Below, piece by piece: positions 1,402 to 63,414 of a DNA stretch of 64,000 nt. The DNA comes from a virus. The DNA is taken from the IMG/VR virus record IMGVR_UViG_3300002307_000003. One strand, written 5' to 3'. How positions within the stretch are numbered: the first letter of the stretch is position 1; each line of letters begins with the position of its first letter. A program made the position numbers and the translations under genes. The notes beneath the pieces are model-generated. The model was not told where the DNA came from, did not search any database, and saw nothing but the letters and a program-made list of their open reading frames with translations.

Positions 1402-1583
1402 TGCGACAACCCTCATACGAACTACGAGATGAAACCGGCGAAGCAATTCGTCGGTTTTATTCTATGGAGTTTGCAGAAAAGTTTTTATGTCAAGGCTACA
1501 CCATCACCAAATTAAATCTTCCTAAACCACCATCCCCATATCAGCAATTACTTTCCCTCAACCTTGGAGACCCACCATTTTGA
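1401..1583 (+). CDS. hypothetical protein
   Basis: 60-aa ORF with a TAATG overlap onto the upstream gene. Confidence 0.45.
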   Translation: MRQPSYELRDETGEAIRRFYSMEFAEKFLCQGYTITKLNLPKPPSPYQQLLSLNLGDPPF

Positions 1584-2161
1584 CAGAAGAACATCAACCC
1601 AATGATATACTCACAGACTATTTACAGTCGCTCTATGGTGTGGACATACTACCTACGGAAGAAGAACACCGCCTGGCTTATCGCATCGCATCAGGTGACC
1701 AAAAAGCCCTCGATAAACTTATCAAGCATAATTTAAGATTTGTAGTTTATGTCATACGCAAAATGACAGCTTGGAAATATGGCAAAATGCCACTTGAAGA
1801 TTTGCTTGCTATGGGTAATGAACAACTTACTATTGCAGCAAAGAGATGGACACCTACAAACAATGCACGCTTTGCAACTTATGCTAGATCTTTTATTGAA
1901 AAAGGAGTACGACGCGAATTGGATAATACGGCTAACCTCATACGCCTTCCTGTAAATATAATGGAAGCTGTTAAGAAAATGAATTATAATGAACGTGCCT
2001 TATCACAAGTTTTAGGTCGCAAACCAAAAATAAGTGAAGTAGCCACAATGATGGGTGTCGATGAGGAAAGAGTCAGACTACTACAATCTTACCTTACACG
2101 TGAACCCATATCACTCGAACACTTAAATGAAGAAAGATTTTTGGAGGAACAAGATGACTAA
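1580..2161 (+). CDS. sigma-70 family RNA polymerase sigma factor
   Basis: Region 2-like DKLIKHNLRFVVYVIRKM. Region 4 HTH-like KISEVATMMGVDEERVRLLQ. TTG start with GGAG about 11 nt upstream; the start codon is uncertain. Confidence 0.75.
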   Translation: MTEEHQPNDILTDYLQSLYGVDILPTEEEHRLAYRIASGDQKALDKLIKHNLRFVVYVIRKMTAWKYGKMPLEDLLAMGNEQLTIAAKRWTPTNNARFATYARSFIEKGVRRELDNTANLIRLPVNIMEAVKKMNYNERALSQVLGRKPKISEVATMMGVDEERVRLLQSYLTREPISLEHLNEERFLEEQDD

Positions 2162-5180: not shown

Positions 5181-5314
5181 TGTTAGATTTTCTCGTAGCA
5201 TTTTCGTTATATCATTTTCAAGCTGATTATAAATGGTGGATTGGGTTTATAATTGTGGTATTAATAGAAACAATTCAAGACATTAATAATAAATATGGAG
5301 TTAAGAATGATTGA
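5180..5314 (+). CDS. possible small membrane protein (44 aa)
   Basis: GAGGAGGG about 10 nt upstream of ATG 5180. Hydrophobic WWIGFIIVVLI. Below the ORF-track cutoff. Confidence 0.35.
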   Translation: MLDFLVAFSLYHFQADYKWWIGFIIVVLIETIQDINNKYGVKND

Positions 5315-5924
5315 ACCAAATTTTGAATTGTTATTTCCTACCCCTGTTATGTTTAATAGCATCGGCAGAGACTTTACTAAAGAAGAACTTGCATACATAG
5401 AAAGCCATGCAACAGCTACCAATCGTAATGTAGGTAACGTAACATCTAACAACAACTATATACTTAATGAACCTGAGATGGCAGACTTGAATAAGTTTGT
5501 TACTGAACAGCTAAATGAATATGTTAAGCGAGTATACAAACCTAAGTTTCCTGCTGAAGCTTTTGTTACACAGTCATGGCTTAATTGGACTAAGAAGGGT
5601 GAATTCCATCATAAGCACGAACATCCAAATAGTTTTATATCAGGTGTGCTATACCTATCTACAGATTCCACTAAAGACAAGATTACTTTTCATAGAGCAG
5701 GTTACAAACAATTACAATTAGTTAGTGATACCTTTGACATATACAACTCTGACTCGTGGTGGTTCAATGTTAAGACGGGTGGCATAGTGATGTTTCCTTC
5801 AAGCTTAACGCATCATGTAGAAGATGTAATAGCCGATGATGTACGAGTAAGTCTTGCATTTAATTCGTTTATCAAAGGAACACTCGGCGATAACAAGTCA
5901 TTGACGGAGTTTAAAAATGGATAA
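5307..5924 (+). CDS. 2OG-Fe(II) oxygenase-like protein (TIGR02466-like)
   Basis: HKHEHPNSFISGVLYL and FPSSLTHHV motifs, typical of the double-stranded beta-helix family common in marine phages. ATG 5307 (GGAG upstream) is preferred over 5295. Confidence 0.65.
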   Translation: MIEPNFELLFPTPVMFNSIGRDFTKEELAYIESHATATNRNVGNVTSNNNYILNEPEMADLNKFVTEQLNEYVKRVYKPKFPAEAFVTQSWLNWTKKGEFHHKHEHPNSFISGVLYLSTDSTKDKITFHRAGYKQLQLVSDTFDIYNSDSWWFNVKTGGIVMFPSSLTHHVEDVIADDVRVSLAFNSFIKGTLGDNKSLTEFKNG

Positions 5925-6477
5925 GTTAACAGACTACATTAAAGTATATCCTTGGCTTGATAAAGAGTTATGTGACCAGATAAGAAAAGAAATAGATGAA
6001 GCTACATGGAAACAACATGTATTTTATAATGCTGATGGTAAGTATGTTACTCAAAGTGGTGACCAAGAACTTGATGTATCGTGGGATAACATAGCTACAC
6101 GCGATAAGCTTACTCAAAAAGTATGGGAAGCTATCAGCCAATACATCTTGACCGATTTTAAGAAGGATTACTTTAATGGATGGCAAGGCTTTACCCATAT
6201 AAGATTTAATCGGTATAAAGAAGGTAAGACTATGGCTAAACATTGTGATCATATTCATGACATGTTTGATGGTAAAATGAAAGGCATACCTACATTATCT
6301 ATCGTAGGCTTTCTTAATGATGATTATGAAGGTGGAGAATTTATCATGTTTGATGACATGGAAATTAAACTAAAACAGGGGGACATATTAATATTTCCAT
6401 CTAACTTTTTGTACCCACATAAAGTTAATCCAGTGACCAAAGGGATACGAGATAGTTTCGTATCATGGGTATGGTAG
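5917..6477 (+). CDS. prolyl 4-hydroxylase-like 2OG-Fe(II) oxygenase
   Basis: HCDH..D metal motif, GGEFIMF, FPSNFLYPHKVNPV and the R in KGIRDSF. GGAG RBS. Confidence 0.65.
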   Translation: MDKLTDYIKVYPWLDKELCDQIRKEIDEATWKQHVFYNADGKYVTQSGDQELDVSWDNIATRDKLTQKVWEAISQYILTDFKKDYFNGWQGFTHIRFNRYKEGKTMAKHCDHIHDMFDGKMKGIPTLSIVGFLNDDYEGGEFIMFDDMEIKLKQGDILIFPSNFLYPHKVNPVTKGIRDSFVSWVW

Positions 6478-13870: not shown

Positions 13871-14299
13871 ATGAAGAAAATCCTAGTCATGGGTCTTCCG
13901 AGCGCGGGCAAAACAACAATGGCTCGCGCTTTGATGAAGCAATTAAAACAACATAACAAAACTGTTAATTGGTTTAATGCTGATCGAGTACGTGAAGACT
14001 TTAATGACTGGGACTTTTCCGATAAAGGAAGATTAAGACAAGCTGCTAGAATGTTTTATTTAGCGCGAGATTCAAAAACAGACTATGTAATTTGTGATTT
14101 TGTATGTCCAACAAAATTAGCTTATGCACTATTCGAACCACAACATATTATATGGATGGACACCATTAATCAAAGTAAGTACGAAGATACAAATCAAATT
14201 TTTACACCACCCACCCAGTATGATTTTAGAGTGACTGAAAAAGACGCTGTAAAATATGCTGAGGATATTGCTAGAAAGATTATAAATGGATCAATATAG
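13871..14299 (+). CDS. P-loop kinase (adenylylsulfate kinase-like)
   Basis: GLPSAGKTT Walker A, then NADRVRED and DKGRLRQAARM, resembling APS-kinase motifs. Confidence 0.55.
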   Translation: MKKILVMGLPSAGKTTMARALMKQLKQHNKTVNWFNADRVREDFNDWDFSDKGRLRQAARMFYLARDSKTDYVICDFVCPTKLAYALFEPQHIIWMDTINQSKYEDTNQIFTPPTQYDFRVTEKDAVKYAEDIARKIINGSI

Positions 14300-16160
14300 A
14301 GAATACATTGCCGCAAGTCGATACGCTAGATTTATAGATGAAAAAGCACGTCGAGAAACATGGGGCGAAACAACCCAAAGATTTGTAGATTATATTTTTA
14401 GTCATACAGAATTAATTAAAGACAATGAAGCATTAAAGAAAGAAATCTTTGACGCTATTTTTAACCATCAATTAATGCCTTCCATGCGTGCCATGATGAC
14501 GGCAGGAAAGAGTGCCGATCGTGACAATACATGCGTTTATAACTGTTCTTACTTACCCGTGGACGATCCTAAATCATTTGATGAAGCCATGTTTATCTTG
14601 CTATGCGGAACAGGAGTTGGTTTCTCAGTCGAAGCAAACAATATTAACAAGTTGCCCGAAGTGCCGGACACTTTATATGAATCCAATCACACGATCGCAG
14701 TCCATGACTCAAAAGAAGGTTGGGCAAAATCATTAAGATTAATACTGGCTCATCTATGGGCTGGTGAAGTTCCACAATGGGACGTAAGTAAAATACGCCC
14801 GGCGGGTGCTCGATTAAAAACATTTGGTGGTAGGGCGTCTGGCCCACAACCGCTGATTGATTTATTTCAATTTGTAGTAGCCGTATTTAAAAATGCTAGA
14901 GGACGTAAATTAAACTCCCTCGAATGTCATGATATTATGTGTAAAATCGGTGAAGTTGTTGTAGTTGGTGGCGTACGTCGTTCAGCTATGATTTCACTAT
15001 CAGACCTAGATGATGAAAGGATTAGACATGCAAAAGCGGGACCTTGGTGGGATACAGCACCGCACCGTGCGTTGGCGAATAATTCCGCAGTGTACGACGA
15101 GACGCCTACAGTTGGCAAATTCATGGAGGAATGGCTCTCCCTCTACAATTCGCACTCGGGTGAACGAGGCATTTTCAATCGCGAGGCAGCTAAGAAAACG
15201 GTTTCCAAATTCGGGCACCGCGATCCAAATTTCGAGTTCGGTACTAACCCGTGCTCCGAGATCATTCTTCGTCCGTATCAATTTTGTAACCTCACGGAAG
15301 CTGTTGTACGTCACGACGATACCAAAGAGACTCTTATATACAAAGTCAAATTGGCTACCATTTTGGGTACAATTCAATCGACGTTCACAAAGTTCCCTTA
15401 TTTAAGAAAAGTGTGGCAAAATAATACCGAAGCAGAACGCTTGCTTGGTGTGTCATTAACTGGTATATTTGACAATAAATTATTAACTACACAAGGGACA
15501 AAATTAAATGAAATTCTTAACGAACTCAGAGATGTGGCGAGAGCTACAAACAAAGAATGGGCAGAAAAACTTGGTATTGAACCAAGTACCGCAATCACTT
15601 GCGTCAAGCCAAGTGGAACAGTCTCTCAACTTGTTGACTCTGCGTCAGGAATCCATCCAAGACATTCTAAGTACTATATCAGAAGAGTACGAGGAGACAA
15701 AAAAGATCCACTTACAACCTTCCTTGTGGAACAGGGCATTCCTAGCGAAGACTGCGTATATAAACCGACGCAAACAACAGTCTTTAGTTTCCCTCAAAAA
15801 GCACCCGACGGATTAACAAGAGAAGATGTTACACCTATAGATCACTTAGAATTATGGTTGACCTATCAAAGAGAATGGTGTGAACATAAACCTTCTGTTA
15901 CCATATCGGTTGAAGAAAAAGATTGGCCAAGTGTTGGAGCATGGGTATGGGATCACTTTGATGAGATTAGTGGAGTATCATTCCTACCATATGATGGTGG
16001 CACTTATCGCCAGGCGCCATACGAAGAGTGTACAGAAGAGCAGTACAATGAATTAAAAGCTAAAATACCTAACATTGATTGGACACATTTTAAAGAAGTG
16101 ACTGACAATGTTGAGGGAGCCCAAATGCTTGCATGCGTGGCAGGTGTTTGTGATATCTAA
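14286..16160 (+). CDS. nrdJ: class II (adenosylcobalamin-dependent) ribonucleotide reductase
   Basis: 624 aa. Active-site TNPCSEI. C-terminal redox pair CVAGVCDI. No separate small subunit. Confidence 0.8.
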   Translation: MDQYREYIAASRYARFIDEKARRETWGETTQRFVDYIFSHTELIKDNEALKKEIFDAIFNHQLMPSMRAMMTAGKSADRDNTCVYNCSYLPVDDPKSFDEAMFILLCGTGVGFSVEANNINKLPEVPDTLYESNHTIAVHDSKEGWAKSLRLILAHLWAGEVPQWDVSKIRPAGARLKTFGGRASGPQPLIDLFQFVVAVFKNARGRKLNSLECHDIMCKIGEVVVVGGVRRSAMISLSDLDDERIRHAKAGPWWDTAPHRALANNSAVYDETPTVGKFMEEWLSLYNSHSGERGIFNREAAKKTVSKFGHRDPNFEFGTNPCSEIILRPYQFCNLTEAVVRHDDTKETLIYKVKLATILGTIQSTFTKFPYLRKVWQNNTEAERLLGVSLTGIFDNKLLTTQGTKLNEILNELRDVARATNKEWAEKLGIEPSTAITCVKPSGTVSQLVDSASGIHPRHSKYYIRRVRGDKKDPLTTFLVEQGIPSEDCVYKPTQTTVFSFPQKAPDGLTREDVTPIDHLELWLTYQREWCEHKPSVTISVEEKDWPSVGAWVWDHFDEISGVSFLPYDGGTYRQAPYEECTEEQYNELKAKIPNIDWTHFKEVTDNVEGAQMLACVAGVCDI

Positions 16161-34408: not shown

Positions 34409-35278
34409 TTATTGTATTACTTTTAAATCATTAATAAACTTAATACTTGGTAATTCAATTTTATAGTAATTATTGCTTTTTATATCAATGACTAATACAA
34501 AACAAGATTGAGATTTAGCATTTTTTTTAAAATTAACTGAGCATCCCACAATGATTTTATCATCAAGAATACTAAGTCCTCTTAAAAATGTACTATCACT
34601 ATCAACAATTTTATGAGCACTAAATTGCTGTGTCTCTAAATTAATCTCTAGTATTTCACCAGTACCTGTAGATAGTGTATACATAAGATTATTATAAAAT
34701 TGTATACCATGGCAACATTTACCGGCTTTTGCTACTAACTTCGCGTCTAATGTTTTTTTATCAATATATCCAAAATCAGATTCTACGATATTTTTATTGT
34801 GTCGACAAAAATATATTTTATCTCCACCATCAAACAATGAGTTAAGATGTCTTGAATCAAGTTGATCTGCCGTTTCTGGCACATTGTGAATATCAACACG
34901 ATTCAAAAGATTCACATTAACAAATCTATTTAATTTATTTTTTACATCATGAATACCAATGGTATCTATGGCAGTATGGCATATATAAAAAGTATCTTGA
35001 TCTTTGATAATTTGATGGGTATTAATCATCATGGGGACATTGATATTTTTTATATAAGCATATGTTGTTTTATCAAATTGTGCAAGTTTACTATTTGATG
35101 CCACATAAATATATTGGTCATCAATATCTATACCGAAAGGCCTGTAAGTAGGTCGTCCCTTATCTTTAAGACTCGGGGCATCAAGTTCTTTTGTTTTACT
35201 TTGACGATGTATTTCTTTATTAGTTTCTAAATCAATAACAAGAAAATCGCATTCTTCTGTGGTAACTAAGAGTTTCAT
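34409..35278 (-). CDS. hypothetical protein (repeat/beta-propeller-like)
   Basis: 289 aa, in a very AT-rich segment. No motif recognised. Confidence 0.5.
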   Translation of the reverse strand: MKLLVTTEECDFLVIDLETNKEIHRQSKTKELDAPSLKDKGRPTYRPFGIDIDDQYIYVASNSKLAQFDKTTYAYIKNINVPMMINTHQIIKDQDTFYICHTAIDTIGIHDVKNKLNRFVNVNLLNRVDIHNVPETADQLDSRHLNSLFDGGDKIYFCRHNKNIVESDFGYIDKKTLDAKLVAKAGKCCHGIQFYNNLMYTLSTGTGEILEINLETQQFSAHKIVDSDSTFLRGLSILDDKIIVGCSVNFKKNAKSQSCFVLVIDIKSNNYYKIELPSIKFINDLKVIQ

Positions 35279-35820
35279 AGGTCTAACTCCAATATGAAAT
35301 TAATAACCACTCTTCGTTTATAATTTTTAGGTACTGCAGATCTATGTGTTGTTTTTGAATTAAACCAAACACAGTTACCTTTTTTAGGTGACGAGGTTAG
35401 TACGACTGTCTTTCCATCATCATTAAATACTGTAGTATCACCATCTGAATCTGTGACGTAATATACAAAACTTACAAAATTAGCCGGATTAAATATATCC
35501 ATATCCGTATGGATTAGGTTTTCAAGTGATGCTTCTGTGTGTGCTATATTAGGTAATAGATTTCCTTTAATGCGTACTACTCGTTTTATTTTTAATCCTG
35601 TTTTTTCAACAAAGTAGCCAACCATTGCATTGACTAAATTAAAATGTGGTGACCATACTTTACGTTGTAAATAAAAAACATGGGTCATTTGGAAGATGTC
35701 TTTATCGGGGGTTGCTGGTACGATATTTTCTGAATTCCATTGCCATGGAAATGATTTAGACATCATGAGCTTATGTACAGCATCCTCCAGCTCCTGAGGG
35801 AGTAGTTTTTCAATAATCAT
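35275..35820 (-). CDS. 2OG-Fe(II) oxygenase-like protein
   Basis: IHTDMD (HxD) and a later THRS...RRVVINF, consistent with the oxygenase facial triad plus Arg. Confidence 0.45.
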   Translation of the reverse strand: MIIEKLLPQELEDAVHKLMMSKSFPWQWNSENIVPATPDKDIFQMTHVFYLQRKVWSPHFNLVNAMVGYFVEKTGLKIKRVVRIKGNLLPNIAHTEASLENLIHTDMDIFNPANFVSFVYYVTDSDGDTTVFNDDGKTVVLTSSPKKGNCVWFNSKTTHRSAVPKNYKRRVVINFILELDL

Positions 35821-58074: not shown

Positions 58075-58105
58075 TACTAATGCATAGATTTTTCAATACC
58101 CGCCC
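58075..58105 (-). promoter_or_regulatory. bipartite promoter-like element GGGCG-N16-TGCATTAGTA
   Basis: TACTAATGCA 58075-58084, 16 nt, then CGCCC 58101-58105, overlapping the terL stop codon by 1 nt. Confidence 0.6.
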
Positions 58106-59544
58106 TATTGAGCATAAGGATTTTCTGTTCGTTTTGATTGGTCATCTGCATAGGCGTAGTCTCTTGCTGGGAGGGGATCCAATTGAATCCAACCTGAATC
58201 TCTTAAGACTCGAAGAGACTGACTTAATGAATCTACATAATCATCGTGTCCGCCGGCTTCAGGAAATGAACAGACTTGACGTAAGAAACGTTTAGACCAG
58301 TCTGCATATTCTTCAGGTCTTTCTGGATCTTCTGGAATAAATACTTTGCCTTTTGCAATTAATGGTGCTACAATATTAAGACGTTGGACTTTATCTGCGC
58401 GACCTGGGTTATATCCGCGGACAGGCACACCAGCACCTTGAAGTTCTTGTATGAGGGAGATACCTGCTGACTTATCTTCCATAAGTATGAGATCTGCTTT
58501 TCGTCCTTTGCCGAAGTCGTTGTCTGACCCATAGACAACTTCCTTAAAGTCTTCTATGACTTTGCGGCGAAGTTCTGGATAAGAAAGATGAGCATCCCAA
58601 GCATCAAGTAATATGATGGATGTGCCTGCGTCCTCCCTTTCAAATACACCCCATATGGTACAAGCTGTTGGGTCGTTCATTGTTTTTTCTGACGTAGCTG
58701 GATCGTAACTGGCAATAACATACTCAAGATCTGGCGTAGGTTTGTTTGCTGGCCACATACGAAATTGTTTACGTTTGATGATACCTGCTTGCTCAGGATC
58801 TAATATTTCACCATAAATTTCTTGGCGACCAATATCTGTGCCATCATAAGTTTCTAATTGTTTAAAGAAGGTTTCAGACAAGTGCATCTTGTTGTCATAT
58901 GATGATGCATTAACTACATAAACATCACCGCCTACTTTACCCTCGTTTAAATCAACAATTAATTCTTTAGGTTTTGGTGTTGTGGTAATGATTTGTTGAA
59001 CGCGAGGAATTCTAGCATCTTTAAGACGCAGCGTAAACTGAACGCCATCATAAGCTTCATCTAAATATTCAAATGCACATAATTCATCAAACCAAGCACC
59101 ATGGAATTGTTTACCACGATAACGTTCAGGTTCTGATCCAGGAATACCTTGAATCAAAGATCCATTGGTCAATGTAATCTCAAAAAGAGATTTGTTATAA
59201 TCTTTAATAATGGAAGGGGGTATAATGTTAAGAAGACCTGAGTCTCCTTCAAAGCATGTTGCGCGAATATCGTTTGAGGTAGGAGCTGTAACTAACCAGC
59301 GAGTATTATTGTAACGCCACGCACGAATTCCAATCCAATGGGAAGCTGTGTGGGTTTTACCTGAACCCCGGCCTGCTAACATGAGGAATGTATCAAACTC
59401 TCCGTCTTCGGGTTCCTTTTGATGGGGGAGTGCTTGTAGTGCCCATTTAATTTGCCAGATGGCAGCCTCAAGCTGAGGCTTAGGCCAATGCCTATTTTTA
59501 GTGGCAAAATCTGATAAGATTTTTTCTTGCTTGGGTGTTAACAT
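58105..59544 (-). CDS. terL: terminase large subunit
   Basis: Walker A LAGRGSGKT, Walker B HGAWFDE, and a C-terminal nuclease-like region (GGHDDYVDSL). Confidence 0.9.
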   Translation of the reverse strand: MLTPKQEKILSDFATKNRHWPKPQLEAAIWQIKWALQALPHQKEPEDGEFDTFLMLAGRGSGKTHTASHWIGIRAWRYNNTRWLVTAPTSNDIRATCFEGDSGLLNIIPPSIIKDYNKSLFEITLTNGSLIQGIPGSEPERYRGKQFHGAWFDELCAFEYLDEAYDGVQFTLRLKDARIPRVQQIITTTPKPKELIVDLNEGKVGGDVYVVNASSYDNKMHLSETFFKQLETYDGTDIGRQEIYGEILDPEQAGIIKRKQFRMWPANKPTPDLEYVIASYDPATSEKTMNDPTACTIWGVFEREDAGTSIILLDAWDAHLSYPELRRKVIEDFKEVVYGSDNDFGKGRKADLILMEDKSAGISLIQELQGAGVPVRGYNPGRADKVQRLNIVAPLIAKGKVFIPEDPERPEEYADWSKRFLRQVCSFPEAGGHDDYVDSLSQSLRVLRDSGWIQLDPLPARDYAYADDQSKRTENPYAQ

Positions 59545-60530
59545 GTAGATATAAATCCTTCGCCAACAAGTATGCTGTTGTCATTTCCCGTTGTTTCAAT
59601 ATGCACACACATTTGGGATTGAATGGGTGTGATCTTTTTAATATATCTTCTTCCAAGATAAACTTTTACTGGTGGGGAGTTTTGAATATCCATAATTTTA
59701 ATTCTAAACTTAAAATACATTGTATATGTATTTCGTCCAGGATTAAAGTTAATGGTTGTCTTTGCTCCTAATGATTCAACTAAACTTTGAATCTGTACAA
59801 CAACGTTTAAGTTCCTTGATGAGAATCTAAACCTGTCAGTCTTTTTATCATACTGATCTGACTTAGCATGCATGATGCCAGTTAATAATTCTATTCGTTC
59901 TTCTACCGATGCAAATAAATAATTGGTAGGTATGCGAGATGGAATGTTTGGTGCAAATTGTAAATGAATAGCTGGTTCTGTTTTAAAAACCCGCTTACCA
60001 TTTTTTCTTTTAGGTCCTTCAATAATTTTATACCCATGACTTTTAAACTTTTCATAAATAAAATCTTGGTAGCCTGGGATTGTTACTAAGTTATACTTTG
60101 AGTTTTTATTATAAAGCCAGAACCCAAAAATAAATGGTGGGATACTTAAAGCTTGGTAAGGAAACTCAATGGGCTTTGTGGTGGGTATAGAATACTTTGT
60201 TCGACTACGTTTATCTTTTAATGGTTCATCTATTAGGTCTTTTAGTTTAATAAACTTAAGCTTCCTCATAAATGGCCTGACGTTTTTATAAGCGTCTAAT
60301 TGTTTCCTATGGTTCCTGTCTTGGATTAAGAACCCAAGGTTAGTATCTCCCTCAATCGTTAAATGATCGTCAAAGGTAACCTCATAACATTGGTTGGCAA
60401 AATAATGTTGGACTAGTTTAACTTGAACGATTTTCCCGTCTTGGTTAAATACATAATCACCAACTTTTAATTTATCTGCTCGTTTCCAATAATCAAGCGT
60501 TAATACTTTTTGTATTGCCGTGATTGCCAT
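59538..60530 (-). CDS. free-standing intein-derived Hint + LAGLIDADG-like protein
   Basis: N-terminal Hint-like VLTLDYW...VGDYVFNQDGKIV. Two LAGLIDADG-like helices (PFIFGFWLYNKNS; IELLTGIMHAKSDQ). C-terminal Hint block CVHIETTGNDNSILVGEGFISTC. Start is ATG 60530 or TTG 60539. Its stop overlaps the terL ATG. Confidence 0.65.
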   Translation of the reverse strand: MAITAIQKVLTLDYWKRADKLKVGDYVFNQDGKIVQVKLVQHYFANQCYEVTFDDHLTIEGDTNLGFLIQDRNHRKQLDAYKNVRPFMRKLKFIKLKDLIDEPLKDKRSRTKYSIPTTKPIEFPYQALSIPPFIFGFWLYNKNSKYNLVTIPGYQDFIYEKFKSHGYKIIEGPKRKNGKRVFKTEPAIHLQFAPNIPSRIPTNYLFASVEERIELLTGIMHAKSDQYDKKTDRFRFSSRNLNVVVQIQSLVESLGAKTTINFNPGRNTYTMYFKFRIKIMDIQNSPPVKVYLGRRYIKKITPIQSQMCVHIETTGNDNSILVGEGFISTC

Positions 60531-60553
60531 TAAGTCCAAACTTATACAAGTTT

Positions 60554-60579
60554 AAAAAAAGAAGGGGCTTGACGCCCCC
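60554..60579 (-). terminator. intrinsic terminator after the pqqA-like gene
   Basis: Minus strand reads GGGGC-GTCAA-GCCCC followed by TTCTTTTTTT. Confidence 0.7.
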
Positions 60580-60608
60580 TCAAAAACTTACCTTTTTTAA
60601 GGGTAGGT

Positions 60609-60680
60609 TTATTTGTTCATTACGTACATAGTTACTTCGAAGCCAAAACGCATTTCAGTAGCTGCTGGAGTTGTCCACAT
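60609..60680 (-). CDS. pqqA: PqqA-like precursor peptide (23 aa)
   Basis: Translation checked base by base: MWTTPAATEMRFGFEVTMYVMNK. Fits the PqqA pattern M-W-x-x-P-x(5)-R-x-G-x-E-V-T-x-Y. AAGGA lies 7 nt upstream. Confidence 0.75.
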   Translation of the reverse strand: MWTTPAATEMRFGFEVTMYVMNK

Positions 60681-60698
60681 AATATTTTCCTTAAGATT

Positions 60699-60723
60699 AA
60701 GTTGTAGAATCATTCTACAACTT
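60699..60723 (-). other. perfect 10-bp stem-loop in the pqqA-like 5' leader
   Basis: AAGTTGTAGA-ATCAT-TCTACAACTT, immediately downstream (in transcript sense) of the motif at 60724-60733. Confidence 0.7.
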
Positions 60724-60805
60724 AACTAATGCAGGAAAATGGAATTGATGGCTACGCAAAACCATGAACGTTGTCTACGTATACTAATGCAAATTTGCGC
60801 AAATT
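60724..60805 (-). promoter_or_regulatory. two TGCATTAGT motifs plus a 14-bp perfect palindrome upstream of pqqA-like
   Basis: AACTAATGCA 60724-60733, TACTAATGCA 60782-60791, and the palindrome AATTTGCGCAAATT at 60792-60805. Confidence 0.5.
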
Positions 60806-60840
60806 CCTTCCAAATGCTTTAATAATTTGCGTAATACGCA

Positions 60841-61110
60841 TGTAAGTCCTTGATTCTAAACAGTTTGTCACACTTCTTTTTAGCTAAGTCATTGATTTTA
60901 AACAGTTGTTACAATTTTGTTACAATTGTGTGTCACCCTTTGACTTCTGTAACCCATTGATTAATAACACATTGTCACACTTGTCACACTTGTTTGTATA
61001 TTTATTTGATTTTAAAAAAGAAATATAGTTTACAGGGTGGTAGGTAATATGCGTTTTGAGGGTGACAAGTGTGACAAGTGTGACAACTTGTTTAGAATCA
61101 ATAACTTACA
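60841..61110. repeat. 270-bp repeat-rich control module B (reverse complement of module A)
   Basis: Same TGTAAGTCCTTGATT ends, TTGTCACAC tandems, GTGTGACAAG tandems and TTGTTACAATT repeats as 2513-2782, in the opposite orientation. Confidence 0.9.
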
Positions 61111-61319
61111 AAAGGCAAAATTGCCAGATTTTATAAAAAAAATTTTTAGACAATCGACTTTTTTAAAAATATACGGAATTTATACAAACTTGCGGTCTGT
61201 GGGGCCCCCGCCGCCCCCTCCCTCGATGGGACCCAAATTGGGTGACCGATTTATATTTAATACCCTTATTGCCATTGTGGGTATATGGTTCGCTAGTCTA
61301 GCAAGGCACACAGGGCATC

Positions 61320-61354
61320 GTGGCTCGCTGTGCTATGCTATGACTGCGAGCCAC
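61320..61354. other. 9-bp perfect GC-rich hairpin
   Basis: GTGGCTCGC (61320-61328), a 17-nt loop, then GCGAGCCAC (61346-61354). Confidence 0.6.
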
Positions 61355-61370
61355 TATGTCGGCTCAGTCG

Positions 61371-61576
61371 CGAGGCATCGAGGCAAGGTGCGAGCGAGGG
61401 TGCGCGCATCATCGAGGCAAGGTGGCAAGGTGGCAAGGTGCGACGCGATCGAGCGAGGCATTGAGGCAAGGTGCGAGGCGTGGCGATGAGGTGGCGAGGC
61501 AAGGTGCGAGGCGAGATGATCGAGCATCGAGGCATCGTGCGACGCGATCGAGCCGAGGCATCGAGGCAAGGTGCGC
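61371..61576 (+). repeat. GC-rich nest of direct repeats (GAGGCAAGGTGCGA x5, CGAGGCATCG x3, 38-nt unit x2)
   Basis: GAGGCAAGGTGCG starts at 61380, 61414 (with GCAAGGTG tripled), 61463, 61496 and 61563. TGCGACGCGATCGAGC occurs at 61439 and 61538. Confidence 0.9.
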
Positions 61577-61627
61577 GATCGATGCGCACGCGAGGGCTCG
61601 GGGGTGGCGTGAACCTCATAAGCAAAA

Positions 61628-61653
61628 CTTATCAGAGGCGCGCACCTGATAAG
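61628..61653. promoter_or_regulatory. 26-bp near-palindrome CTTATCAG-AGGCGCGCAC-CTGATAAG
   Basis: 8-bp perfect arms plus a central GCGCGC. Possible operator. Confidence 0.5.
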
Positions 61654-61758
61654 AATAAACAATTAAAAAGATTTGATATATATGGTGAATTGATTTTAAT
61701 TATCGGGTTATAATCGGGGCATGCGCAATCTCGCGCATATTTAAAAGAAAGGCTCAAA

Positions 61759-63414
61759 ATGAATCTCACAATTTCATCACCACGCGCACCACGCCTCACC
61801 ACGTTGAGCGATCTCGCTCGAGGCTTTCTCTCTGATAACATTTTAGAAAATGACAGGCGCATTTATTATCTCGACACGATGCGCGAATTTATCAGAGGCA
61901 ATCTATCATCAAGCCTCAAATATAAAACCGCGAGCAAATCATCGCGCCTCAATGAAAGACGCAAGGGGCGCAATATGTCAAAGGCGATCGCCACGATCAA
62001 AAAAAATCCGAAAGACATCGAGGCATCATTCATATACTTGTCATTGATCTATCAGATGAATGAAGACAAGGCGAGGCAATTCGAGCCCGCTTTCATTGAT
62101 GCTCGAGTGAATTTTCGCTCGGGTGAATGGCAAGCGATCACGTTAAAAAGCATCGATTCAAATATCGAGGGTTATCACCTTATCAATTTTGATCGATATA
62201 ATTTTATTTACTCATTACATTTTTCAATGAGCGAGCCGACACTCGTCGCATATTATCCAACGCTTGAGCATATGAGAAAGCGAAAAGAGGTGCGATTACG
62301 ATTCGGGAAATTTTTAACCAATATAAAAAACGAGATCGGCATTGAAAGCGAATCGATCATTAAGAATTATGTCGATGCTTACAATTCGATTTTACACGCG
62401 CGCAACGGGTGGCGATTGGATTTCATCGGCTCGAATGATCGCGAGGGGTGGCTCAATATTTATCAAGATGATAGGCACGTCAATTCATGTATGAGCGATT
62501 GTGATTCGGTGAAATTATATGCGCATGATCGATCAGTTTTGCGATTGGCTTATCTTGTCAATCAAGATAATGAGGTGCTCGCTCGTTGCATCGTGCGAGA
62601 AGATTTAAAAGAGTTTATTCGAGTTTATCCAGCCCCCGAAAATAGCACCTCGGGAAAATGGTTGCTCACTCTTTTAAAAGATCAGGGTTATTCATGGGGT
62701 TGCCTTGAGGGCGTATTAATCAAAACATATAATCACGATGAGGGGGGTTATCTCGCGCCATATATCGATCGAGGCAATTCAAACGGGTGTCAATATGGCT
62801 CAATAAAAAATATCGAGGGAAAATTATTTTTTGAAATTGGCGATAGTGGCGATTATTCGCTCACAATGACAAACGGGCGCACCGAAGAAGATGAGAGCGA
62901 AGATGATAATTCAACGTATTGCGAATGGTGCGATGATTACCACCACGAAGATGATGCTGTTTACCATGATAACCTCGGGTATTCGGTGTGCGACGGGTGC
63001 GCCAATGATTACGGCATCGAGGCAATTAATCCCGATGGTGATAGTGAGTTCATTCATCAAGATGATTCGTTTTATTGTGAGAGCGACGGCATGAATTACA
63101 CGCGCGAATCATTCGATGAGGGTGTTATCTTGCGCGATGAATCTACGGGCGATTTTTATTTGATCGAGGATTTAGTCGAGGTGTTCGAAAATGTATTCAT
63201 TCATAAAAATCAAGTCATCTCGCCGATCGTGCCTTATATAAGATCACGCACGCGATTGACGAATGGTGATCTCGTCGCGCATTTTCAATATCTTATTGAT
63301 ATTGATGAGGCTCGATTCTTACCGAATGGCGAGGCGATTCACTACACGCAACTCGATGAGATGATCGAATTATTAAACTCTTATAAACTTGAAAGCGAGG
63401 CAATTAATGCGTAA
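61759..63414 (+). CDS. hypothetical early protein with C-terminal Cys/His cluster
   Basis: 551-aa ORF, with an alternative start at ATG 61972 (MSKAIAT). CEWCDDYHHEDD...CDGC looks like a zinc ribbon. No family recognised. Confidence 0.65.
   Translation: MNLTISSPRAPRLTTLSDLARGFLSDNILENDRRIYYLDTMREFIRGNLSSSLKYKTASKSSRLNERRKGRNMSKAIATIKKNPKDIEASFIYLSLIYQMNEDKARQFEPAFIDARVNFRSGEWQAITLKSIDSNIEGYHLINFDRYNFIYSLHFSMSEPTLVAYYPTLEHMRKRKEVRLRFGKFLTNIKNEIGIESESIIKNYVDAYNSILHARNGWRLDFIGSNDREGWLNIYQDDRHVNSCMSDCDSVKLYAHDRSVLRLAYLVNQDNEVLARCIVREDLKEFIRVYPAPENSTSGKWLLTLLKDQGYSWGCLEGVLIKTYNHDEGGYLAPYIDRGNSNGCQYGSIKNIEGKLFFEIGDSGDYSLTMTNGRTEEDESEDDNSTYCEWCDDYHHEDDAVYHDNLGYSVCDGCANDYGIEAINPDGDSEFIHQDDSFYCESDGMNYTRESFDEGVILRDESTGDFYLIEDLVEVFENVFIHKNQVISPIVPYIRSRTRLTNGDLVAHFQYLIDIDEARFLPNGEAIHYTQLDEMIELLNSYKLESEAINA

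Follow-up and report, generated by a model that had tools for sequence, protein, structure and literature searches.

The 64-kb stretch of viral DNA that was analysed at its full length (hereafter the window) encodes a true PqqA-family peptide, and the 72-nt gene behind it is probably a functional phage copy of host pqqA, maintained as an auxiliary metabolic gene (AMG), as judged from comparison of the sequence with its viral and bacterial relatives. PqqA is the peptide consumed in making the cofactor PQQ, and the Glu and Tyr of its E-x-x-x-Y pair are the residues that are cross-linked in PQQ biogenesis and become the PQQ skeleton. A study of 2020 had already described viral pqqA in predicted Methylophilaceae phages of Lake Baikal (population VP_266) and proposed it to be an AMG boosting PQQ for methanol dehydrogenase (Coutinho et al., 2020, Microbiome, PMC7678222), and the gene was listed again in 2026 (PMC13188868); new here are the siphovirus lineage that carries the gene, its regulatory anatomy and the history of the lineage.

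The PqqA peptide and its orphan gene

The coding unit comprises two features:

60609..60680, minus strand: pqqA mini-gene, 23 codons plus TAA, product MWTTPAATEMRFGFEVTMYVMNK
60688..60692, minus strand: Shine-Dalgarno-like AAGGA, 7 nt 5' of the pqqA ATG

The original prediction had described a minus-strand 24-codon ORF at 60680..60609 with AAGGA 7 nt ahead of its ATG, and both were found as described on reading the sequence. It had also assigned the product to PqqA and proposed scoring it with the corresponding HMMs, by which the assignment was strongly supported: the peptide reached 40.3 bits with PF08042 (Pfam PqqA, gathering score 21.1; full-length match, 1-19 of 19) and 38.8 bits with the equivalog model TIGR02107 (cutoff 20; match 1-21 of 21), scores far beyond chance. 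Within its 23 residues, E15-V-T-M-Y19 is the conserved Glu-x-x-x-Tyr pair, and W2, P5, R11 and G13 are also kept, which are the shared positions that had been put forward together with the E-V-T-x-Y core. Residue for residue the phage peptide is the commonest chromosomal PqqA of Methylophilaceae; among the matches listed, 40 of 129 bacterial copies and 21 of 120 viral copies encode it identically. Handling by PqqD, cross-linking by the radical-SAM enzyme PqqE and conversion to PQQ would be expected from this 100% identity with the commonest host PqqA. A Shine-Dalgarno-like sequence precedes pqqA in 116 of 116 viral copies and 6 of 6 isolate copies compared.

The gene stands alone, as had been claimed: tblastn with Acinetobacter and Methylophilaceae PqqB-E found no pqqB, C, D or E in the window, Pfam/PHROG scans of its 48 ORFs found no PQQ enzymes, and no PqqB-E homologue occurred in any of ~210 viral loci, where it should be considered that the two ends of the window do not overlap and that up to a few kb of the phage genome may fall outside it. 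Phage pqqA thus lacks genomic linkage to pqqBCDE, which is not a strict requirement for a PqqA, since the identical peptide is an orphan in 19 bacterial loci and adjoins pqqB in 9. A complete pqqBCDE set was present in 25 Methylophilaceae-type loci, so that the likely host genomes do possess the enzymes, a point on which the original prediction had wanted a check; the single Methylopumilus locus fetched contained an orphan pqqA copy only and is uninformative on the pqqBCDE of that genome. Methylophilaceae have 3-12 pqqA copies per genome and a single pqqBCDE (Beck et al., 2014, PMC4109929). Single copies are not equivalent, either in how strongly they are expressed or in how much they add to PQQ (Ge et al., 2015, cited in PMC9851590), and in a methylotroph strong expression of certain copies goes together with PQQ output (PMC9851590). 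A database entry named 'Acinetobacter phage MD-2021a' was rejected as a phage with a full pqq operon, its contig having a bacterial chromosomal arrangement (ppk-pqqABCDE-dipeptidase), and served solely as a source of reference proteins.

Regulatory anatomy of the pqqA cassette

Around the coding unit, and downstream of it up to the packaging genes, the following features were recognized:

60725..60733, minus strand: proximal TGCATTAGT motif, phage-type -10-like promoter element
60783..60791, minus strand: distal TGCATTAGT motif, a tandem promoter-like pair with the proximal one
60792..60805, no strand: AATTTGCGCAAATT, a perfect palindrome of 14 bp directly adjoining the distal motif
60697..60726 (about), minus strand: 5' stem-loop (predicted fold), 13 Watson-Crick pairs and one G-U, 3-nt loop UGA
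60584..60610, minus strand: weaker A/U-rich hairpin, AAACCUACC...GGUAAGUUU, immediately 3' of the pqqA stop codon
60554..60581, minus strand: predicted intrinsic terminator/attenuator, GAGGGGGC-GUCAA-GCCCCUUC then U7
59538..60539, minus strand: conserved 333-aa ORF directly upstream of TerL, matching only part of long TerL PHROG profiles
58105..59544, minus strand: terminase large subunit (TerL), 52.7% identity to the TerL of MW202545, context gene

The TGCATTAGT motif occurs in 15 exact copies in the window vs. 1.18 expected; every copy lies on the strand that is coding locally, most stand just 5' of genes, and many sites have GGGCG ~16 nt upstream of the motif; it is the phage's own genome-wide promoter-like element and is not specific to pqqA. 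It is kept 5' of pqqA in relatives, the distal copy being conserved in L251, L252, L257, L264-266 and L320, and in 44 of 59 relatives without pqqA it ends exactly 6 nt ahead of the ATG. Both motifs had been recognized beforehand, with coordinates one base off (60724-60733 and 60782-60791). The palindrome is likewise present and perfect, as claimed; it occurs only once in the window, does not exceed chance, and is kept only in L251 and L252/255/256, other carriers having a GGGC-type sequence instead. A functional role for it was set aside as unsupported on the last two grounds.

The 5' stem-loop lies directly after the proximal motif, and is predicted to fall where the transcript begins or close by. 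It is larger than the 10-bp hairpin initially described at 60699-60723. Seven distinct variants in relatives have 54 of 56 cells paired, and 4 of the 8 pairs show double changes that compensate each other, while arms combined across sequences pair at only 5.8 of 8; pairs were counted in register by a script, as the MAFFT alignment of the leaders is not structure-aware. At the other end of the gene, the GC hairpin and T-tract expected at 60554-60579 were found with a stem reaching 60581 (8 pairs at 60581-60561, 6 of them G-C; T7 at 60560-60554). Of 14 pqqA-carrying relatives, 11 have a terminator homologous to it; among the viral pqqA copies, only about half have a terminator. The A/U-rich hairpin between stop codon and terminator is not conserved in L027, and an Rfam scan of 60000-62000 returned only sub-threshold, microRNA-type noise on inverted repeats.

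The minus strand from 58084 to 60725, which includes the stretch from the pqqA terminator to the packaging genes, has no promoter motif, and where relatives lack pqqA the next gene is driven straight from the TGCATTAGT motif. For these reasons pqqA looks like an insertion that separates the packaging-operon promoter from the first gene of the operon, its terminator serving as attenuator, and the cassette, read from its layout, looks like a promoter-proximal gene plus attenuator ahead of the terminase operon. The promoters of pqqA then probably serve the TerL gene as well, by read-through. The proposal that pqqA forms its own promoter-to-terminator unit was hence half right, the motif being the phage's general one and the packaging genes downstream having no other. 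The 333-aa ORF is present in almost every TerL relative, and in those without pqqA it has an extra ~95-aa N-terminal domain beginning at the promoter motif, a domain absent from the window. In the bacterial pqqA-hairpin-pqqB arrangement, the operon opens with a very small gene of high expression and a hairpin behind it, which results in abundant short transcripts and fewer read-through ones; in the window phage, by contrast, the genes past the hairpin are for packaging and not pqqBCDE.

Carrier lineages, acquisition and selection

The window represents a ~64-kb tailed phage, probably of methanol-oxidising Methylophilaceae, a host to which only the similarity of its pqqA points. TerL, tail, lysis and replication genes confirm the phage origin claimed for this DNA; no tRNA genes were found in the window. 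Megablast of the locus, and also of 18 kb around it, gave no match to deposited phages, and the phage is without a close sequenced isolate. TerL has 244 relatives in IMG/VR, and the carrier lineage consists of siphoviruses of ~60-66 kb with a TerL nearest to MW202545 and Caulobacter phages. The gene is flanked by viral sequence within a bona fide viral genome, the conserved phage ORF and the terminase downstream, a phage intergenic region and orf551 (common to L251, L252 and L258) upstream, and 16 related viral contigs have it at the syntenic position. In the TerL lineage all type-A pqqA carriers form one clade with no non-carrier inside, and pqqA is vertically inherited in the clade of the window phage; the ORF with Glu15 and Tyr19, whose loss in close relatives would have spoken against the original prediction, is kept in every one of them. 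A second clade of the same lineage represents a separate acquisition of pqqA, and 48 TerL relatives at 86-90% identity are without pqqA near TerL.

Outside this lineage, pqqA was found in six cultured or complete methylophage types (P19250A, MW202481, MEP301, Venkman, MEP401/402 and Melnitz), HIM624-A and MEP431-434 not being among the isolate matches. At least 120 IMG/VR contigs carry it, and all 120 pattern matches listed are PqqA-shaped ORFs, distributed among these matches over at least 16 unrelated flank clusters, none with pqqB-E nearby. The carriers span siphoviruses, podoviruses and myoviruses of both marine OM43 and freshwater LD28-type systems, and the gene lies in other lineages in a recombination module, in a tRNA cluster or at the genome end. 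Whether pqqA is a convergently acquired signature gene of Methylophilaceae phages, the methylotroph counterpart of cyanophage psbA, appears to us evenly balanced; if so, phages would control cofactor supply, and hence methanol oxidation, in infected abundant methylotrophs of lakes and coasts, and pqqA could be a host-prediction marker for uncultured viral contigs.

Nearest bacterial DNA matches of the window gene were Methylotenera MAGs (~92.5%, leader included). Homology ends exactly at the stop codon and, on the 5' side, ~12-25 nt upstream of the ATG (~60692-60703), indicating that what is conserved is the translated unit, bounded by the RBS leader and the stop codon. The leaders of L251 and L253/254 had no match among host pqqA upstream regions by blastn-short. 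Orphan chromosomal copies of Methylophilaceae encode the same peptide at a distance from pqqBCDE, usually with a Shine-Dalgarno sequence ahead and a hairpin-terminator behind (99 of 120 bacterial copies), whereas the window copy is viral, stands among phage genes behind a phage-specific promoter-like motif, and matches host DNA no further than the RBS on one side and the stop codon on the other.

Viral PqqA is under purifying selection at the peptide level. In the comparison set of 107 distinct viral nucleotide sequences, where the search pattern itself forced some residues, M1, W2, P5 and R11 are invariant outside the forced ones, Arg11 despite the use of five codons (CGT, AGA, CGC, CGA and CGG). 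Variation is mostly synonymous with constant amino acids, and the variable sites are the same in viruses and bacteria. The gene is a homologue of a host metabolic gene kept by selection in the virus. An A6S allele, found in 34 of the 107 viral sequences vs. 0 of 98 bacterial ones, is virus-only, which argues for long residence in phages.

Proposed role and alternative explanations

Methylophilaceae (OM43, LD28/Methylopumilus, Methylotenera) are major oxidisers of methanol and C1 compounds in lakes and coastal seas, with methanol dehydrogenases that are fully PQQ-dependent. The sequence signals for expression of pqqA are the promoter-like motif, the covarying 5' hairpin, the Shine-Dalgarno sequence and the terminator. 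During infection the phage transcription programme would make a short, abundant, hairpin-stabilised pqqA mRNA; from the geometry of the sequence, a phage sigma-70-family factor encoded at 1580-2161 would probably recognise the GGGCG-N16-TGCATTAGT promoters, and some transcripts may pass the terminator into the 333-aa ORF and the terminase genes. The peptide would then be taken up by host PqqD/PqqE for the Glu15-Tyr19 cross-link, processed by the protease and converted by PqqB and PqqC into PQQ, sustaining the supply for periplasmic PQQ-dependent methanol dehydrogenases (XoxF/MxaF), whose upkeep would maintain energy and carbon flow for virion production. A phage copy of the precursor would keep PQQ synthesis going because PqqA is the sole part of the pathway of which each PQQ uses up one molecule, and because transcription of host genes is likely to fall in infection. 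Against this reading, PQQ is fairly stable and the hosts already hold several pqqA copies, so that PqqA need not be limiting within one infection cycle, and the 48 TerL relatives without the gene indicate that it is dispensable in the wider lineage. The AMG role advanced by the original prediction is nonetheless the best explanation for an orphan, selected, true PqqA identical to that of the host, and, if phages sustain PQQ synthesis through the precursor alone, infection would directly modulate C1 oxidation in Methylophilaceae.

The multiplicity and dispersal of host pqqA (3-12 copies; PMC4109929), with many orphan copies among them, could also let phages pick up so tiny a gene repeatedly by illegitimate or homologous recombination and keep it for a while without benefit, as a neutral passenger. 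The patchiness of pqqA across the wider TerL lineage and the unlike leaders of L251 and L253/254, suggestive of repeated exchange, would fit such a course, which we consider unlikely in view of the peptide-level selection with its switches between Arg codon families, the virus-specific A6S allele, the retention of pqqA in every member of the window's clade, its occurrence across three morphotypes and at least 16 contexts in phage genomes that are small and streamlined, and the promoter of phage type and covarying 5' hairpin that accompany it. If pqqA instead acted on the DNA level, as a non-coding stretch that matches the host chromosome and serves as an att-like site or a target for recombination, its 88-97% nucleotide identity to host and viral copies over ~85-95 nt and its location beside Erf/Sak/YqaJ recombination genes in several siphoviruses would be accounted for; yet Pfam/PHROG scans found no integrase in the window, none is annotated in P19250A and MEP301 is without a functional one, the homology has its edges at the RBS and the stop codon rather than at a gene's 3' end, and synonymous variation with constant amino acids is the signature of selection on protein and not on DNA. 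The integration idea was rejected on the lack of an integrase and the protein-level selection, and a DNA-level role as a whole is highly improbable.

Antagonism between phage and host offers a different use for the same peptide: surplus PqqA could titrate PqqD/PqqE or the protease, or be a signal or another modified peptide, rewiring or stopping host metabolism. PqqA-family RiPP genes are reported to be co-expressed with defence systems in a metagenomic study (PMC11118758), and the orphan status of the gene would leave the phage in control of the substrate alone. A decoy would nevertheless be expected to diverge or to lose the cross-linking residues, while the phage peptide matches the commonest host substrate at every residue, keeps all conserved positions including Glu15 and Tyr19, and should just become PQQ; the PqqD/E decoy entertained in the original prediction is thus disfavoured, and we regard any such non-PQQ role as very unlikely. 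Little credence, finally, can be given to pqqA as a cis-regulatory leader cassette, whose small ORF and terminator would attenuate the downstream terminase operon with the peptide incidental. The lack of a promoter motif ahead of the packaging genes, and the next gene standing directly behind the same promoter in relatives without pqqA, speak in its favour, but elsewhere the gene occupies quite different neighbourhoods, the terminator is missing from about half of the viral copies, and attenuation leaves the exact conservation of the PqqA peptide unexplained.

Taking phage pqqA as a functional AMG, the closest precedent is population VP_266 of Lake Baikal, likewise a predicted Methylophilaceae phage encoding PqqA, and a Melnitz-like myovirus cluster in our data (13 loci) is of the same general type. 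VP_266 differs in being a T4-like myovirus with a viral methanol dehydrogenase gene and a sister population with radical-SAM genes (PMC7678222), whereas the window phage is an unrelated siphovirus with pqqA as its only PQQ-related gene.

With psbA (D1), cyanophages encode only the fast-consumed component of a host energy system and leave the rest to host enzymes. By analogy, phage pqqA may follow the same logic of replacing the consumable, with the difference that D1 is a structural subunit with a measured role in infection and PqqA a 23-aa biosynthetic substrate, known here from sequence. Several cultured phage-host pairs with pqqA (P19250A, Venkman, MEP301, MEP401/402 and Melnitz) make the hypothesis testable now. 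At 72 nt, pqqA would be an unusually small AMG, and with only 24 codons it has been largely missed by gene callers: in the isolate records it is either unannotated or overlain by a spurious ORF on the opposite strand, a reminder that phage annotation and AMG surveys routinely overlook very small ORFs.

Identity, setting and likely host of the pqqA gene

The 24-codon ORF that the original prediction had likened to PqqA is recognized by both curated models of the family: its product scored 40.3 bits against Pfam PF08042 (gathering score 21.1) and 38.8 bits against the TIGR02107 equivalog (threshold 20), far over either cutoff and matching the full length of each model, and its E-x-x-x-Y pair consists of Glu15 and Tyr19. 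A second in-frame ATG upstream, at 60713, would allow a 34-aa product; the residues preceding Met-Trp were nonetheless different in each other copy compared, and the conserved product is therefore the 23-aa form.

Features of the pqqA locus
60680..60609, minus strand: pqqA ORF, 24 codons including stop, translation MWTTPAATEMRFGFEVTMYVMNK
60725-60733 and 60783-60791, minus strand: two copies of the promoter-like motif TGCATTAGT
60792-60805: 14-bp palindrome
Between the proximal motif and the SD sequence: 5' hairpin of 13 Watson-Crick pairs and one G-U
7 nt upstream of the pqqA ATG: SD-like AAGGA
60581-60561: G+C hairpin of the terminator, followed by T7
59538-60539, minus strand: 333-aa ORF directly preceding TerL

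The AAGGA and the GC hairpin with its T-tract had both been predicted and were found in the sequence, and the 5' hairpin, predicted as 10 bp, exists but is larger. Both promoter-like motifs are likewise present, although the motif is not specific to pqqA; the palindrome is there, but its role as a functional element found no support.

The phage pqqA is a true orphan, as had also been claimed. PqqB, PqqC, PqqD and PqqE of an Acinetobacter operon gave no tblastn match in the window at E <= 10 and a best E of 0.22 over about 125 viral loci, while four Methylophilaceae-type PqqB-E sets, from fetched host loci, yielded nothing beyond short noise matches in the window and no match at E <= 1e-3 among some 210 viral loci. 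The record CAKLQF020000010.1, deposited as 'Acinetobacter phage MD-2021a', carries ppk, a whole pqqABCDE operon and a membrane dipeptidase at 105.9-112.5 kb, and its chromosomal gene order suggests bacterial DNA, or the flank of a prophage.

A bacterial scan for the MRFGFEVTMY core, with one genome per species, returned at least 120 loci, and the matches listed were nearly all Methylophilaceae (Methylotenera, Methylophilus, Methylopumilus, Methylobacillus, and Methylovorus), with some Methylophaga and Methylomonas. Among these listed matches the window peptide was the commonest variant, identical in 40 of 129 copies; the identical peptide adjoined pqqB at 9 loci and was an orphan at 19, and a complete pqqBCDE set was present at 25. 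Such counts are consistent with the 3-12 pqqA copies and single pqqBCDE(FG) set of Methylophilaceae (Beck et al., 2014, PMC4109929). The best bacterial DNA matches listed for the window ORF and leader were Methylotenera MAGs (about 92.5%), which, judging from pqqA alone, makes a Methylophilaceae host likely.

The window is the genome of a tailed phage, encoding TerL plus replication, lysis and tail genes; since its two ends do not overlap, a small portion of the genome may lie beyond it. Its TerL shares 52.7% identity with that of the uncultured siphovirus MW202545 and 42% with Caulobacter phages, and no close DNA-level relative was found among deposited phages. TerL relatives were nevertheless present in 244 IMG/VR contigs, the best 80 of the 244 at 86-99% identity and with contigs reaching about 66 kb, so that the phage belongs to an abundant uncultured lineage. 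Among the 48 ORFs screened there was no integrase, methanol dehydrogenase or PQQ enzyme.

Other genes of the phage
1580-2161, plus strand: sigma-70-family factor
5295-5924 (plus), 5917-6477 (plus) and 35275-35820 (minus): three 2OG-Fe(II) oxygenase-family genes
14286-16160, plus strand: class II (B12-dependent) ribonucleotide reductase
58105-59544: TerL
Replication and nucleotide genes: D5-type primase/helicase, SNF2 helicase, DUF2800 nuclease, Enc34-type ssDNA-binding protein, family A DNA polymerase
Also encoded: lysozyme, M15 peptidase, glycine-rich tail-fibre paralogues

Composition jumps at 34-36 kb (30.5% G+C), where an HNH-like endonuclease ORF lies (35834-36292); the adjoining block of 43-46% G+C (within 36000-44000) holds the tail-fibre paralogues (36639-38859) and three phrog_2295 paralogues (39158-43456).

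Recurrence, selection and inheritance

Deposited phages searched by tblastn with the window peptide proved to carry the gene repeatedly.

PqqA identity to the window peptide in deposited phages
LD28 phage P19250A: 100%
Uncultured MW202481: 96%
OM43 phages MEP301 and Venkman: 91%
MEP401 and MEP402: 83%
Four Melnitz myoviruses: 73%

The gene is without annotation in the records of P19250A, MEP301, Venkman and MEP401/402, and in Melnitz-1 (2461-2556) and MW202481 (2067-2195) a 'hypothetical protein' annotated on the opposite strand covers it, likely a spurious call hiding the real mini-gene. As further named methylophages were missing from these matches, pqqA is frequent in methylophages and may not be universal among them. 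When IMG/VR was scanned with a degenerate DNA pattern for GFEVTMY, at least 120 contigs matched, and all 120 of those listed held a PqqA-shaped mini-ORF with start, Trp, Pro, core, and a stop 4-5 codons on. With pqqA masked, their flanks fell into at least 16 unrelated clusters, including 90 P19250A/Venkman/MEP301-like loci, 13 Melnitz-like loci, MEP402 by itself, and the window together with one further contig.

Selection acts on the peptide. Across the viral copies of the 23-codon form (107 different nucleotide sequences), M1, W2, P5 and R11 were invariant and N22 nearly so, outside the seven residues fixed by the search pattern, with Arg11 encoded by CGT (62), AGA (27), CGC (14), CGA (3), and CGG (1) and Pro5 by four different codons; the variable viral positions (4, 6, 7, 8, 21) are those variable in bacterial copies. 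The A6S allele (MWT[KT]PSATEMRF...) occurred in 34 of the 107 viral sequences and in none of 98 distinct bacterial sequences sampled, which suggests virus-specific allele lineages and a long residence of pqqA in phages, not solely recent captures. DNA similarity between the window and all other copies, host or viral, ends exactly at the stop codon and 12-25 nt 5' of the ATG, so that the conserved object is the RBS plus ORF, as expected of a translated gene rather than of an RNA element or a patch of DNA homology.

Within the lineage, sampled as the 80 closest of the 244 TerL relatives, 16 carried pqqA just upstream of the 333-aa ORF, as in the window (type A), three carried it abutting that ORF (type B), and 48, all with enough upstream sequence, lacked it. 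In a neighbour-joining tree of TerL, a single clade free of non-carriers unites the type-A carriers (window, L251-L260, L263-L266), L320 falling immediately outside, and the type-B carriers make up a distinct basal clade; pqqA is therefore vertically inherited in the window clade, and the lineage gained it on at least two occasions. Nor had close relatives lost the ORF or its Glu/Tyr pair, an outcome that would have spoken against the prediction. The nearest relative, L251 (TerL 99%), has another allele (…YICNR, 4 of 23 residues different; 2560-2740) with a leader unlike the window's and located about 420 nt farther from TerL, and L253/L254 (4760-4940) have a distinct leader of their own, which points to allele replacement or re-acquisition inside the clade; neither leader had a match among the bacterial loci compared. 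In non-carriers the ORF preceding TerL is about 425 aa long, its extra N-terminal domain of ~95 aa (MSDYAYQIKGALENAQG...) starting 6 nt past the promoter motif; this domain was not found in the window, where the pqqA cassette thus sits in its place.

The 333-aa ORF itself is shared by nearly all TerL relatives (43-92% identity). No Pfam family matched it, and its PHROG matches covered only internal parts of very long profiles ('terminase large subunit' and helicase loader), a pattern that looks intein/Hint-like and raises the question of a small terminase substitute or a Hint-type protein.

Expression signals

The motif TGCATTAGT has 15 copies in the window, where 1.18 would be expected (plus strand: 2834, 4913, 10229, 11228, 11834; minus strand: 25661, 32397, 35876, 45906, 50259, 51593, 54256, 58076, 60725, 60783), always on the local coding strand, mainly intergenic and just 5' of replication and structural genes, often with GGGCG about 16 nt 5' and an ATG 5-10 nt 3'. 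It is kept in more than 60 related viral contigs, and in relatives without pqqA its end lies exactly 6 nt from the ATG in 44 of 59, the geometry expected of a -10-type element producing leaderless mRNAs. The genome encodes a sigma-70-family factor and the motif is missing from the first 2.8 kb, which hold that gene; this suggests a middle/late promoter class recognized by the phage sigma factor, with pqqA in its regulon.

The 5' hairpin differs in sequence among relatives and keeps its position between proximal motif and SD. The seven distinct variants had 54 of their 56 stem cells paired and showed compensatory double changes at 4 of 8 pairs, and swapping arms between sequences lowered mean pairing to 5.8 of 8 positions; such covariation favours an RNA structure over a protein-binding palindrome, probably a stabilizer at the transcript 5' end. 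An SD-like sequence precedes 116 of 116 viral copies, 54 of these copies are followed by a terminator-like hairpin, compared with 2 of 116 when sequences were shuffled, and the terminator is kept in 11 of 14 pqqA carriers.

The locus had been described as an isolated promoter-to-terminator unit. Between 60725 and 58084, however, the minus strand has no copy of the motif even with one mismatch allowed, and sigma-70-type matches are at chance level, so that transcripts of the essential 333-aa ORF and TerL probably start at the pqqA promoters and arise by read-through. The locus fits better as a promoter-proximal mini-gene whose attenuator precedes the packaging operon, a layout resembling the pqqA-hairpin-pqqB arrangement of bacterial operons.

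The divergent intergenic region 5' of pqqA also holds short-repeat arrays (60906-60931, 60967-60993, 61062-61086), comprising TTGTTACAATT x2.4 and an inverted pair of GTGACAAGT x3 around an AT-rich centre, with related 'gacaaccctgacaa' repeats at the equivalent place in relatives; they look like candidate protein-binding iterons (origin, pac site or operator). Farther on, a G+C-rich island (61180-61640) in the otherwise 38% G+C genome has a poly-C/G run (61200-61222) and a degenerate tandem array (61416-61575; periods 8 and about 33 nt; GGCAAGGTGCGA...), with neither tRNA nor Rfam match.

Proposed role

Alone among the components of PQQ biogenesis, PqqA is spent, one for each cofactor molecule made, PqqD, E, B and C being reusable. 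By supplying the host's exact substrate alone, from its own promoter-like motifs and with signals that favour a short mRNA, stable and well translated, the phage may have its peptide processed by host enzymes, and so maintain or raise PQQ for the PQQ-dependent methanol dehydrogenases these methylotrophs need, while host transcription is probably waning, which would benefit the phage. An auxiliary metabolic gene (AMG) sustaining host PQQ supply is the reading best supported by identity, orphan status, recurrence, selection, vertical inheritance and conserved expression signals, and we regard it, as a whole, as probable; that the window carries a functional, selected phage pqqA gene is very probable.

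The selection data, the clade-wide retention and the convergent acquisition all speak against a neutral passenger. The decoy for PqqD/E that had been proposed, or another antagonistic role, fits poorly with a phage peptide identical to that of the host, while an att-like role of the DNA is opposed by conservation at the protein level and by the lack of integrases, none being found in the 48 ORFs screened or annotated in P19250A, and MEP301 having no functional one. A purely cis-regulatory leader is less likely given how varied the contexts of pqqA are in other phages.

The concept of a viral pqqA is already known, and the window adds a further case to it. A T4-like Methylophilaceae virus population of Lake Baikal carries a PqqA gene beside a viral methanol dehydrogenase gene, for which the identical AMG role was proposed (Coutinho et al., 2020, PMC7678222), and viral pqqA, pqqD and pqqE are among the AMGs of a 2026 sediment survey (PMC13188868). 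The publications on Venkman, MEP301, MEP401/402 and Melnitz nowhere mention pqq as a phage gene. What appears new with respect to the cited literature is the breadth over cultured methylophages and >120 viral contigs, the repeated independent acquisition and selection on the peptide, and a regulatory layout in which the 5' hairpin covaries and an attenuator precedes the packaging genes; the locus makes a solid AMG case that can be tested and brings some new detail from comparison, unsurprising to a specialist. In contrast to the Baikal virus, no methanol dehydrogenase is among the 48 ORFs of the window; the oxygenases and the ribonucleotide reductase are additional candidate accessory genes of this phage, related to host metabolism or nucleotides.
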